A stretch of DNA of 64,000 nt, taken from assembly GCF_013122565.1 (NCBI RefSeq), contig NZ_CP053258.1, one strand, 5' to 3'. Shown here piece after piece: positions 26,413 to 54,762 of the stretch (positions within the stretch are counted from its first letter, which is position 1; the number at the start of each line of letters is the position of its first letter). Made by a program: the position numbers and the translations under genes. This DNA is from Escherichia coli (GTDB lineage: Bacteria; Pseudomonadota; Gammaproteobacteria; Enterobacterales; Enterobacteriaceae). Below the pieces are notes generated by a model that worked only from the letters and a program-made list of their open reading frames with translations, searched no databases and was not told the origin of the DNA.

Positions 26413-26418
26413 AACGCA

Positions 26419-26450
26419 AGCAGGCAGAGATATATGTCTGCCTGCTTTCT
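26419..26450 (+). terminator. Terminator-like hairpin after tcuC
   Basis: AGCAGGCAGA / TCTGCCTGCT 10-bp stem, 8-nt loop, followed by TTCT. Confidence 0.5.
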
Positions 26451-36300: not shown

Positions 36301-36418
36301 TGCCTCTTCTCATTTCTTCTGCTGTCATCCGCACAGCAGAAGAATTCCTCATTGACTATTATCGCGCAATTTGCTCACATGGATTAAATTAAACCACATC
36401 CTATAAGATATAAACTTC

Positions 36419-49861: not shown

Positions 49862-49881
49862 TAACGTTTAACGGTAACGGT

Positions 49882-49907
49882 GTCCCGAAACGAACCCGTT
49901 TCGGGAC
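49882..49907 (+). other. 10-bp-stem hairpin in the gadB-gadC intergenic region
   Basis: GTCCCGAAAC-GAACCC-GTTTCGGGAC, followed by only a weak T tract. Confidence 0.5.
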
Positions 49908-50016
49908 AATTTCCAAAGTCTGTTCACTGGCATTAGCAACGGAAAATATTGTTCTGAATACGCTTCAGAACAAAACAGGTGCGGTTCCGACAGGAATACC
50001 GTTTTAGGGGGATAAT

Positions 50017-51552
50017 ATGGCTACATCAGTACAGACAGGTAAAGCTAAGCAGCTCACATTACTCGGATTCTTTGCCATAACGGCATCGATGGTAATGGCT
50101 GTTTATGAATACCCTACCTTCGCAACATCGGGCTTTTCATTAGTCTTCTTCCTGCTATTAGGCGGGATTTTATGGTTTATTCCCGTGGGACTTTGTGCTG
50201 CGGAAATGGCCACCGTCGACGGCTGGGAAGAAGGTGGTGTCTTCGCCTGGGTATCAAATACTCTGGGGCCGAGATGGGGATTTGCAGCGATCTCATTTGG
50301 CTATCTGCAAATCGCCATTGGTTTTATTCCGATGCTCTATTTCGTGTTAGGGGCACTCTCCTACATCCTGAAATGGCCAGCGCTGAATGAAGACCCCATT
50401 ACCAAAACTATTGCAGCACTCATCATTCTTTGGGCGCTGGCATTAACGCAGTTTGGTGGCACGAAATACACGGCGCGAATTGCTAAAGTTGGCTTCTTCG
50501 CCGGTATCCTGTTACCTGCATTTATTTTGATCGCATTAGCCGCTATTTATCTGCACTCCGGTGCCCCCGTTGCTATCGAAATGGATGCGAAGACCTTCTT
50601 CCCTGACTTCTCTAAAGTGGGCACCCTGGTTGTATTTGTTGCCTTCATTTTGAGTTATATGGGCGTTGAAGCTTCCGCAACCCACGTCAATGAAATGAGC
50701 AATCCAGGGCGCGACTATCCACTGGCTATGTTACTGCTGATGGTGGCGGCAATCTGCTTAAGCTCTGTTGGCGGTTTGTCTATTGCGATGGTCATTCCGG
50801 GTAATGAAATCAACCTCTCCGCAGGTGTAATGCAAACCTTTACTGTTCTGATGTCCCATGTGGCACCGGAAATTGAGTGGACGGTTCGCGTAATCTCCGC
50901 ACTGCTGTTGCTGGGTGTTCTGGCGGAAATCGCCTCCTGGATTGTTGGTCCTTCTCGCGGGATGTATGTCACAGCGCAGAAAAACCTGCTGCCAGCAGCA
51001 TTCGCTAAAATGAACAAAAATGGCGTACCGGTAACGCTGGTCATTTCGCAGCTGGTGATTACTTCTATCGCGTTGATCATCCTCACCAATACCGGTGGCG
51101 GTAACAACATGTCCTTCCTGATCGCACTGGCGCTGACGGTGGTGATTTATCTGTGTGCTTATTTCATGCTGTTTATTGGCTACATTGTGTTGGTTCTTAA
51201 ACATCCTGACTTAAAACGCACATTTAATATCCCTGGTGGTAAAGGGGTGAAACTGGTCGTGGCTATTGTCGGTCTGCTGACTTCAATTATGGCGTTTATT
51301 GTTTCCTTCCTGCCGCCGGATAACATCCAGGGTGACTCTACTGATATGTATGTTGAATTACTGGTCGTTAGTTTCCTGGTGGTACTTGCCCTGCCCTTTA
51401 TTCTCTATGCTGTTCATGATCGTAAAGGCAAAGGGAATACCGGCGTTACTCTGGAGCCAATCAACAGTCAGAACGCACCAAAAGGTCACTTCTTCCTGCA
51501 CCCGCGTGCACGTTCACCACACTATATTGTGATGAATGACAAGAAACACTAA
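50017..51552 (+). CDS. gadC: Glutamate:GABA antiporter
   Basis: 511-aa polytopic membrane ORF immediately downstream of gadB. Confidence 0.95.
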
Positions 51553-51577
51553 CCATGTCTGAATGGTTATAAGATAA

Positions 51578-51606
51578 GGGAGCGATAATTCATCGCTCCC
51601 TTTTTC
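51578..51606 (+). terminator. Rho-independent terminator after gadC
   Basis: GGGAGCGAT-AATTC-ATCGCTCCC followed by TTTTT. Confidence 0.75.
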
Positions 51607-51682: not shown

Positions 51683-53002
51683 ATGGATATCTGCTCCCGA
51701 AACGAGAAATTAGCGATTAGAAGACCAGCGATACTGGTTGCACTGGCACTTTTACTGTGTAGTTGTAAAAGCACGCCTCCAGAGTCCATGGTGACACCAC
51801 CAGCGGGTTCAAAGCCACCAGCCACGACGCAACAATCGTCACAACCGATGCGTGGCATCTGGCTGGCCACGGTGTCTCGCCTCGACTGGCCACCGGTTTC
51901 CTCGGTTAACATTAGTAACCCCACCAGCCGGGCCCGTGTACAACAACAGGCGATGATCGACAAACTAGATCATCTGCAACGTCTCGGCATAAACACGGTC
52001 TTTTTCCAGGTCAAGCCAGACGGTACCGCCCTGTGGCCATCGAAAATTTTGCCGTGGTCCGATCTTATGACCGGTAAGATTGGTGAAAATCCGGGTTACG
52101 ATCCGCTGCAATTCATGCTCGACGAAGCCCACAAGCGTGGGATGAAAGTACACGCCTGGTTTAACCCCTATCGCGTATCGGTTAATACGAAGCCCGGTAC
52201 TATCAGGGAACTGAATAGCACCCTGTCTCAACAACCGGCGAGCGTCTATGTGCAACACCGCGACTGGATCAGAACGTCCGGCGATCGCTTTGTCCTCGAC
52301 CCGGGCATACCTGAGGTTCAGGACTGGATCACGTCAATAGTCGCAGAAGTGGTTTCCCGCTATCCGGTAGATGGCGTGCAGTTTGACGACTATTTCTATA
52401 CTGAGTCACCGGGTTCACGGCTAAATGATAACGAAACGTACCGCAAATACGGAGGCGCATTTGCGTCGAAAGCAGACTGGCGGCGCAACAATACTCAGCA
52501 GTTAATTGCAAAAGTATCGCACACCATTAAAAGCATTAAGCCGGGAGTCGAATTTGGCGTTAGCCCGGCAGGCGTGTGGCGTAACCGATCACACGATCCG
52601 CTCGGTTCCGATACCCGAGGCGCGGCAGCCTATGACGAATCCTACGCTGACACCCGTCGATGGGTGGAACAAGGATTGCTGGATTACATTGCTCCCCAAA
52701 TTTACTGGCCGTTCTCACGGAGTGCCGCGCGTTATGACGTGTTGGCAAAATGGTGGGCGGATGTCGTTAAACCGACCAGGACCCGCCTGTATATCGGTAT
52801 CGCCTTCTATAAAGTGGGTGAACCTTCAAAGATAGAGCCAGACTGGATGATTAACGGCGGCGTACCGGAACTGAAAAAGCAGCTCGATCTTAACGATGCG
52901 GTACCAGAAATTAGCGGCACAATCTTGTTCCGTGAGGACTATCTGAATAAACCGCAGACTCAACAAGCGGTCAGCTATCTGCAAAGTCGTTGGGGCAGTT
53001 AA
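51683..53002 (+). CDS. yddW: YddW, lipoprotein with glycoside-hydrolase-like domain
   Basis: 439-aa ORF with a lipoprotein signal ending in a lipobox-like LLCSC. Confidence 0.9.
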   Translation: MDICSRNEKLAIRRPAILVALALLLCSCKSTPPESMVTPPAGSKPPATTQQSSQPMRGIWLATVSRLDWPPVSSVNISNPTSRARVQQQAMIDKLDHLQRLGINTVFFQVKPDGTALWPSKILPWSDLMTGKIGENPGYDPLQFMLDEAHKRGMKVHAWFNPYRVSVNTKPGTIRELNSTLSQQPASVYVQHRDWIRTSGDRFVLDPGIPEVQDWITSIVAEVVSRYPVDGVQFDDYFYTESPGSRLNDNETYRKYGGAFASKADWRRNNTQQLIAKVSHTIKSIKPGVEFGVSPAGVWRNRSHDPLGSDTRGAAAYDESYADTRRWVEQGLLDYIAPQIYWPFSRSAARYDVLAKWWADVVKPTRTRLYIGIAFYKVGEPSKIEPDWMINGGVPELKKQLDLNDAVPEISGTILFREDYLNKPQTQQAVSYLQSRWGS

Positions 53003-53379
53003 ACTCCCATTTTTACTTTGTAACAAGCCGGTGCTTTACCCACTGGCTTGTTACCCTCTTGAACTATCCCACTAGTAATCATGCTTACTAAAGTCAAATT
53101 AACCACGCAATTAACCACACTTAGTTAAATAACCATAAATCCCCTAATAAAAATGTATGAATATGAAAAACCATACGATATTCGCTGTCACCGAAAAATA
53201 ATTACGATGGGCTATACTCTTCTGAAGAACAGTAGCGTAGATTGAAACTGTCCTAAGTCGCTTATTTCTTTTCAGTATATCTTCATATTTCAGGAGAATA
53301 TGGTGCAGTTAGTCGATCTCGCACGTTGCGTTTCGTTTTTGATTCCGTCTGATTTCCCAGCCTTATAAGGGTGTGAATT

Positions 53380-54762
53380 ATGGAGATGTATTTTAAAAGA
53401 ATGAAAGATGAGTGGACCGGACTTGTCGAGCAGGCAGATCCGCCCATTCGTGCTAAAGCCGCGGAAATTGCCGTTGCGCATGCTCATTATCTGAGTATCG
53501 AGTTTTATCGAATTGTCCGCATCGACCCGCATGCCGAAGAATTCTTGAGTAATGAACAAGTTGAGCGGCAGTTGAAAAGTGCGATGGAACGCTGGATTAT
53601 TAACGTGCTTTCCGCCCAGGTTGACGATGTCGAAAGGCTAATACAAATCCAGCATACCGTCGCGGAAGTGCATGCCCGCATAGGAATTCCGGTAGAAATT
53701 GTCGAGATGGGGTTTCGGGTGCTGAAAAAAATCCTCTATCCGGTAATCTTCTCTTCGGATTATTCCGCCGCAGAAAAACTTCAGGTCTACCATTTCTCTA
53801 TTAACAGTATTGATATCGCGATGGAAGTGATGACCCGCGCGTTTACCTTTAGTGACAGTAGTGCCTCAAAGGAAGATGAAAACTATCGTATCTTCTCGTT
53901 ACTGGAAAATGCCGAAGAAGAAAAAGAACGGCAAATAGCCTCAATACTTTCATGGGAAATAGATATTATCTATAAAGTCCTGCTGGATTCTGATTTAGGC
54001 AGTAGTTTGCCTTTAAGCCAGGCTGATTTTGGCCTGTGGTTTAACCATAAAGGTCGACATTATTTTAGCGGCATTGCCGAAGTGGGCCATATCTCCCGTC
54101 TGATTCAGGATTTCGACGGTATTTTCAATCAAACCATGCGTAACACCAGGAATTTGAATAACAGAAGTCTGCGGGTGAAATTTTTATTACAGATAAGAAA
54201 TACTGTATCGCAAATTATTACCTTGCTGCGTGAATTGTTTGAAGAAGTATCGCGCCACGAAGTCGGTATGGATGTACTGACGAAATTACTTAACCGCCGT
54301 TTCCTGCCGACTATCTTCAAACGCGAAATTGCCCATGCCAACCGGACCGGTACACCGCTGTCAGTGCTGATTATTGACGTTGATAAATTTAAAGAGATCA
54401 ACGATACGTGGGGCCATAACACTGGCGATGAAATTCTGCGTAAAGTCTCTCAGGCCTTTTATGACAACGTCCGCAGTAGTGATTATGTTTTCCGCTACGG
54501 GGGCGATGAATTTATCATTGTTTTGACTGAAGCTTCTGAAAACGAAACGTTACGTACCGCAGAACGTATTCGCAGTCGGGTGGAGAAAACCAAACTGAAA
54601 GCCGCAAACGGCGAGGATATTGCCCTCTCACTTTCCATCGGTGCCGCCATGTTTAATGGTCATCCTGACTATGAGCGCCTCATTCAAATAGCCGATGAAG
54701 CTCTGTATATCGCCAAAAGACGAGGTAGAAACCGTGTTGAACTCTGGAAAGCCAGTCTTTAG
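53380..54762 (+). CDS. dosC: DosC, globin-coupled diguanylate cyclase
   Basis: 460-aa ORF with a GGDEF motif (RYGGDEF). Confidence 0.93.
   Translation: MEMYFKRMKDEWTGLVEQADPPIRAKAAEIAVAHAHYLSIEFYRIVRIDPHAEEFLSNEQVERQLKSAMERWIINVLSAQVDDVERLIQIQHTVAEVHARIGIPVEIVEMGFRVLKKILYPVIFSSDYSAAEKLQVYHFSINSIDIAMEVMTRAFTFSDSSASKEDENYRIFSLLENAEEEKERQIASILSWEIDIIYKVLLDSDLGSSLPLSQADFGLWFNHKGRHYFSGIAEVGHISRLIQDFDGIFNQTMRNTRNLNNRSLRVKFLLQIRNTVSQIITLLRELFEEVSRHEVGMDVLTKLLNRRFLPTIFKREIAHANRTGTPLSVLIIDVDKFKEINDTWGHNTGDEILRKVSQAFYDNVRSSDYVFRYGGDEFIIVLTEASENETLRTAERIRSRVEKTKLKAANGEDIALSLSIGAAMFNGHPDYERLIQIADEALYIAKRRGRNRVELWKASL

Follow-up and report, generated by a model that had tools for sequence, protein, structure and literature searches.

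In Escherichia coli, nearly all Rho-dependent transcripts have their steady-state 3′ ends just past a stable stem-loop (Dar & Sorek 2018; PMC6061677). The stem-loops of this class show reduced U, are not preceded by an A tract and are followed by a region with a mild excess of C over G. Termination itself takes place at a more distal point, after which PNPase and RNase II shorten the transcript as far as the stem (PMC6061677). Here we describe a hairpin downstream of the digH (yddW) gene and compare it with this class. The hairpin was found in a 64-kb window, by which we mean the whole stretch of 64,000 nucleotides that was analysed; it is E. coli chromosome, and its orientation is opposite to that of K-12. 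RefSeq annotates no feature on the hairpin, and in the literature that mentions yddW or digH we found nothing on the terminator of this gene.

Structure and position of the hairpin

The genes gadC (50017-51552), digH, dosC and dosP are all encoded on the + strand of the window. In the list of open reading frames, the digH coding sequence (439 aa) occupies positions 51683-53002 and ends with a TAA stop codon at 53000-53002. Strain MB53 (99.8% identity) has this cell-wall hydrolase gene annotated as digH and described as a "family 10 glycosylhydrolase"; in K-12 it is b1491. The next gene on the same strand is dosC (53380-54762), which starts 325 nt past the hairpin; it lies outside the element and is the gene that the hairpin would insulate. 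The hairpin is therefore located in the 377-nt digH-dosC spacer, 17 nt past the digH stop codon. The leader of dosC contains the small open reading frame yddY (53300-53368, + strand). This encodes 22 aa in the window and 13 aa in the case of the validated K-12 protein, and the two versions differ through a 1-nt indel within a run of T. The sequence CTATACT (53212-53218, + strand), which is preceded by a G and lies about 80 nt upstream of yddY, resembles an extended -10 element of the sigma-S type. It is a plausible dosC promoter, and our sigma-70 scan does not report it. Genomic SELEX papers have placed peaks of the RpoS and RpoH holoenzymes in or near the yddW-yddV spacer.

The 17-nt spacer that separates the hairpin from the stop codon (53003-53019, + strand; ACTCCCATTTTTACTTT) is T-rich, as is the upstream flank of the stem (CCCATTTTTACTTT), and no A tract precedes the stem. 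The 5′ arm (GTAACAAGCCGGTG; 53020-53033, + strand) is composed of an A-rich lower part (GTAACAA, 53020-53026) and a GC core (GCCGGTG, 53027-53033). It is followed by a 7-nt loop (CTTTACC, 53034-53040, + strand) and by the 3′ arm (CACTGGCTTGTTAC; 53041-53054, + strand), in which the core (CACTGGC, 53041-53047) precedes a U-rich lower part (TTGTTAC, 53048-53054). A repeat search reported the same region, 53020-53054, as an inverted repeat with 14-nt arms that are 93% complementary and separated by a 7-nt gap. The sole non-Watson-Crick position is G53030/T53044. In RNA transcribed from the + strand this position is a G·U wobble, so that all 14 pairs form, and the calculated dG is -20.9 kcal/mol (z -6.1; none of 200 shuffled sequences was equal). 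On the - strand this pair becomes a C·A mismatch, with a dG of -18.4 kcal/mol. When a 96-nt context was folded, the + strand hairpin was retained in both the MFE and the centroid structures. The first-pass annotation had reported a hairpin after yddW with a stem of about 14 bp and one mismatch. Its coordinates and sequence are exact and the stem stands. The mismatch does not: it is a G·U wobble in the mRNA and an allele of this strain, and in K-12, which has C instead of T at 53044, the stem is perfect.

We then consider the sequence that follows the stem. The tail past the full stem (CCTCTTGA) contains only three T in eight nucleotides. If the 7-bp GC core alone is taken as the stem, the 3′ arm itself provides a degenerate U tract (UUGUUACC / TTGTTACC) with four U in eight. 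Thus, the absence of a T tract holds for the full 14-bp stem, and the core-only reading has a degenerate U tract. A terminator scan of positions 52500-53900 on both strands, in which at least five T in the eight nucleotides after the stem were demanded, gave no site that combines a hairpin with a T tract. The earlier statement that no T run follows the stem is confirmed in this way for either strand. A terminator acting on the - strand was rejected, because the tail there is AAAGTAAAAATG and the stem contains the C·A mismatch. In an Rfam 15 scan with permissive E-values, no family reached its gathering score; the best overlap was with rli61 (22.6 bits as compared with a gathering score of 50, E 0.28).

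Long hairpins are frequent in this window. Stems of at least 14 bp with at most one mismatch occur twice, as compared with 0.1 expected from first-order Markov simulations, and stems of at least 12 bp occur ten times, as compared with 0.83 expected. Long hairpins are thus about tenfold to twentyfold over chance, and the digH hairpin is more than a chance structure. Seven of the ten lie 3-21 nt past a stop codon, and only the one that follows gadC has a T tract. Five others, with stems of 12-14 bp (9884-9914, 12100-12129, 26416-26449, 36312-36346 and 49881-49908), are found 3-19 nt past the stop codons of long open reading frames. Because their T tracts are poor or absent, these five hairpins appear to be of one class with the digH hairpin. 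One of the five, which is T-poor, follows gadB, and in the Term-seq table of Adams 2021 a 3′ end lies 4 nt beyond it; a second 3′ end is listed downstream of the gadC T run. A hairpin after a stop codon without a T run is, judging from the hairpins of the window itself, a common arrangement.

Downstream tract and proposed mode of 3′-end formation

Immediately downstream of the hairpin, composition and folding delimit a G-poor, unstructured tract with more C than G (53055-53160, + strand). The tract is 106 nt long and contains 26 C and 8 G. In its best 78-nt stretch the number of C minus that of G is +17, a value that within the window ranks at the 99.6th percentile. The ratio of C to G in the tract reaches 4.5 (top 0.02%). 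The MFE of the tract is -4.3 kcal/mol. Genomic 106-mers have values of -23.8 +/- 6.3 kcal/mol, and all 300 that were sampled fold more strongly than the tract. K-12 and four other Escherichia loci (L004-L007, see below) likewise show a bias of C over G downstream of the hairpin. The tract is G-depleted rather than C-rich; its absolute C content and the number of YC dimers are average. According to the RhoTermPredict rule, a C is placed every 11-13 nt (PMC6407284). Strict spacing of this type is absent from the tract after the hairpin and was found only in stretches that include the hairpin itself. We regard the tract as a candidate Rho loading (rut-like) region on the basis of its G depletion and its lack of structure. 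The AT-rich, G-poor composition could instead reflect a region upstream of the dosC promoter.

The tract also contains a 12-nt tandem duplication (53097-53120, + strand; AATTAACCACGC / AATTAACCACAC), which is present as a single copy in K-12. Tandem Repeats Finder returned nothing from the digH-dosC intergenic region, this duplication included.

With moderate confidence, we propose that the sequence at 53020-53054 is the 3′-terminal protective stem-loop of digH mRNA and that the transcript is released downstream of it, most likely by Rho. RNA polymerase would transcribe through the hairpin, because the tail is too U-poor for efficient intrinsic termination. The polymerase would then be released further downstream and before the dosC promoter region, and Rho, as the most likely release factor, would find a loading region in the tract at 53055-53160, which is G-poor and unstructured and would be free of ribosomes. 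The resulting tail would be heterogeneous, and the 3′-to-5′ exonucleases PNPase and RNase II may trim it back to the 14-bp stem. If the stem blocks these exonucleases, the steady-state 3′ end would be fixed at around 53054-53062 and the digH mRNA would be stabilised. The first-pass annotation had suggested a Rho-dependent or RNA-stability element instead of an intrinsic terminator, and this is the most likely reading, with partial and indirect support. The non-canonical tail, the G-poor tract and the genus-wide conservation at the RNA level argue for it; the C spacing and the average YC dimers of the tract argue against it, and a weak intrinsic terminator is possible. In Adams 2021, neither the Term-seq nor the Rho table contains an entry near the corresponding K-12 position (~1567445-1567455, - strand), which may reflect low expression of digH. 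Among the entries listed in the TERMITe and TRS supplements, there is likewise no entry for this site.

The main alternative is that the 7-bp GC core (GCCGGUG / CAC(C/U)GGC) acts as a weak or hybrid intrinsic terminator, with GUAACAA as the A tract and UUGUUAC as the degenerate U tract. Some polymerases would stop about 7-9 nt past the core, at around 53054-53056, possibly with the help of NusA or NusG, and Rho would take the rest. We consider this possible but rather unlikely. The core is GC-rich and invariant throughout the genus, and the sequence directly past it (TTGTTACC) has four T in eight. Two T that adjoin the core are mostly kept despite changes of their 5′ partners, and pair 12-34 is unpaired in four of 11 alleles. 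Moreover, canonical terminators are found in the same position after digH in Enterobacter, Rahnella, Buttiauxella and others, and Dar and Sorek discuss such intermediates as transition states between termination mechanisms (PMC6061677). However, no sub-stem of the hairpin is followed by five or more T in eight, and the U tract is broken by G, A and C. Even fewer T are found past the core in relatives (GTGTCATC, TTGTCACC and TTATGACC). When the lower stem is formed, the would-be U tract is base-paired, and the Term-seq tables of Adams 2021 have no 3′ end at the digH hairpin. The protective stem-loop and the weak intrinsic terminator predict nearly the same 3′ end. Therefore, mapping of 3′ ends alone cannot separate these two models.

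Conservation and distribution of the hairpin

A DigH scan with one genome per species gave 80 loci, and a 3′ flank homologous to that in the window was found in the five loci of the genus Escherichia only (L003-L007). In all five, a hairpin is located 15-18 nt past the digH stop codon, with a dG of -12.8 to -22.4 kcal/mol and a z-score of -3.4 to -5.6. The spacer length of 15-18 nt and the CTTACTTTGT motif in the spacer are kept in most of the Escherichia loci. We aligned 11 distinct alleles. Except for wobble changes, the GC core (GCCGGTG/CACCGGC) does not vary. In contrast, the lower stem varies among the Escherichia relatives, and the sequence past the stem soon becomes unalignable. The loop occurs as CTTTAAA, CTTTAAG, CTTTACA and ATGCAAG and with a 1-nt deletion, and it is fully different in L007. 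Pairing is found in 92.9% of the cells of the alignment, as compared with 33-51% when the partner is slid. One stem pair is changed from A-U to G-C in four sequences. Among the irregular pairs that are derived from transitions, about seven are G·U on the + strand and two are A·C (one-sided binomial p ~0.09). In two pairs both partners have changed. Of 500 shuffles, 36-46 reach the observed covariation values; thus, the covariation at the digH stem is suggestive and not statistically strong. The preference of the wobble changes for the mRNA strand and the genus-wide conservation of the hairpin point to an RNA-level element of digH.

In Escherichia sp. MOD1-EC7003 (L003, 3820-4370), dosCP is absent from the locus, osmC is now convergent to digH, and the hairpin is kept at the junction. 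The deletion begins a few bases past the hairpin and brings in osmC with a REP-like palindrome. Since the hairpin is kept despite the loss of dosCP, it travels with digH and not with dosC. Outside Escherichia, the 3′ flank of digH is not homologous and a canonical terminator is often found there. Canonical terminators with a hairpin and a T run follow digH in Enterobacter, Rahnella, Buttiauxella and Pectobacterium, and strong hairpins without a T tract follow it in Citrobacter, Pseudocitrobacter and Raoultella.

Within E. coli, the hairpin region is present in 5412 of 5426 complete genomes. The median copy number is one place per genome, with a 101-nt as well as with a 35-nt query, and within the window the sole matches to the hairpin are its own two arms. 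Because the hairpin is single-copy, a REP/BIME element and a MITE end were rejected as its identity. The exact allele of the window was found in 1483 and the perfect K-12 allele in 2641 of the 5426 genomes. Minor alleles have a 1-nt deletion in the loop or single mismatches (L086, L088 and L089 are mismatched). In some minor alleles the stem is weakened (-15.5 kcal/mol in L086 and -11.6 kcal/mol in L090), and this counts against a protective stem-loop.

Two E. coli records deserve a separate description. In strain P276M (L090, 2500-2626) the allele is divergent: the hairpin is shortened, with the core GCCGGT GCT ACCGGC, and the 3′ flank is replaced. Because dosC is also frameshifted in this record, a problem of assembly quality is possible. 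In strain MS20673 (L165, NZ_CP082067.1), the end of an IS1 abuts the hairpin within its 3′ arm at 3098/3099 (…CCCACTGGC/GGTAATGGTGCC…, where the slash marks the junction). The next gene past the IS1 is sra, so that this strain has lost dosCP together with the genes as far as sra, and its stem is destroyed. We also searched metagenomes with the pattern CTTACTTTGTNNCAN{1,2}GCCGGTG. Of the 74 matches, 54 (L091 and 53 others) belong to an unrelated locus that is abundant in gut metagenomes (CTTACTTTGTTACACGCCGGTGGCGCAAAAAGCG…) and has 22 nt in common with the digH 3′ flank by chance. The 17 matches to digH gave only one new loop variant, and the test of wobble asymmetry was therefore not strengthened.

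These data bear on a second alternative, in which the hairpin has no present function and is a neutral or decaying remnant of a former terminator hairpin, kept because the genus is young. The statistically weak covariation, the mismatched E. coli alleles, the shifted and weaker lower stem in L003 and the removal of the 3′ arm at the IS1 junction in one strain are consistent with such a remnant. However, divergence has made the loop and the 3′ flank unalignable but left the GC core unchanged, and every relative folds well beyond its shuffles. In addition, almost all E. coli genomes possess the hairpin, and long hairpins directly past stop codons are about tenfold over chance. We consequently judge a remnant to be improbable.

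It is very improbable that the hairpin is a regulated gate instead of a passive cap, at which read-through from digH into yddY-dosCP or the binding of a 3′-end RNA chaperone such as ProQ is tuned. If such a gate exists, it would link a septal peptidoglycan hydrolase, through its expression, with the c-di-GMP module of DosC and DosP. The DosC and DosP proteins have been reported to be associated with PNPase, which is one of the exonucleases that the stem would block.

A palindromic protein-binding site in the DNA, such as a Ter-macrodomain site or one for a regulator acting on the dosC promoter, is likewise very improbable. In its favour, the hairpin sequence is a 35-bp dyad symmetry that lies upstream of dosC and within the terminus region of the chromosome. 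However, the hairpin is kept in L003 without dosCP, the arm sequences differ between species while pairing is kept, the changes favour G·U on one strand (an asymmetry that a DNA site would not show) and the likely dosC -10 element is ~190 nt further downstream. By comparison with the consensus sequences, a Ter (Tus) or matS site was rejected as a chance partial match. The TTGTAAC in the 5′ arm resembles the core of the Tus-binding Ter site (GTTGTAAC); however, about eight chance occurrences of this heptamer are expected in 64 kb, and there is no match at the flanking Ter positions. The hairpin does not fit the contiguous palindrome of matS (GTGACRNYGTCAC).

Comparison with known systems

If the hairpin is a protective stem-loop, the digH transcript would probably end there, and the hairpin would insulate the sigma-S-controlled yddY-dosCP unit from digH. 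The 3′ ends of digH are also a clean example of variation between genera, with terminators in Enterobacter, T-less hairpins in Citrobacter and a stem-loop plus a G-poor tract in Escherichia. The main value of the hairpin is for annotation, and it opens no new question.

Three kinds of known elements resemble the digH hairpin to different extents. The REP/BIME elements, for example those that stabilise mRNA 3′ ends at malE-malF, are similarly intergenic, imperfect palindromes that are able to block 3′ exonucleases. In contrast to them, the digH hairpin is single-copy, does not contain the REP consensus and has a locus-specific sequence. With canonical intrinsic terminators, such as that of gadC (51574-51604 plus T5), the digH hairpin shares a GC-rich core, a stop codon within ~20 nt, a loop within the range of 3-8 nt and an A-rich 5′ flank that is complementary to a U-containing 3′ flank. 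However, it has no U run: three T in eight follow the full stem and four in eight follow the core, as compared with seven to eight U in the classical case.

The stem-loops described by Dar and Sorek are the closest relatives. Like them, the digH hairpin is stable and near the end of a coding sequence, and it has neither a U-rich tail nor an upstream A tract. C exceeds G downstream of it, its size and energy are terminator-like, and it is not a REP element. It differs in that the downstream tract is G-depleted and not clearly C-rich. The class is defined by experiment, through a steady-state 3′ end at the stem, sensitivity to bicyclomycin and longer tails in pnp and rnb mutants, and the digH hairpin is a candidate member of it. 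Thus, the digH hairpin looks like an unannotated but ordinary member of the known class of 3′ hairpins without a U tract.
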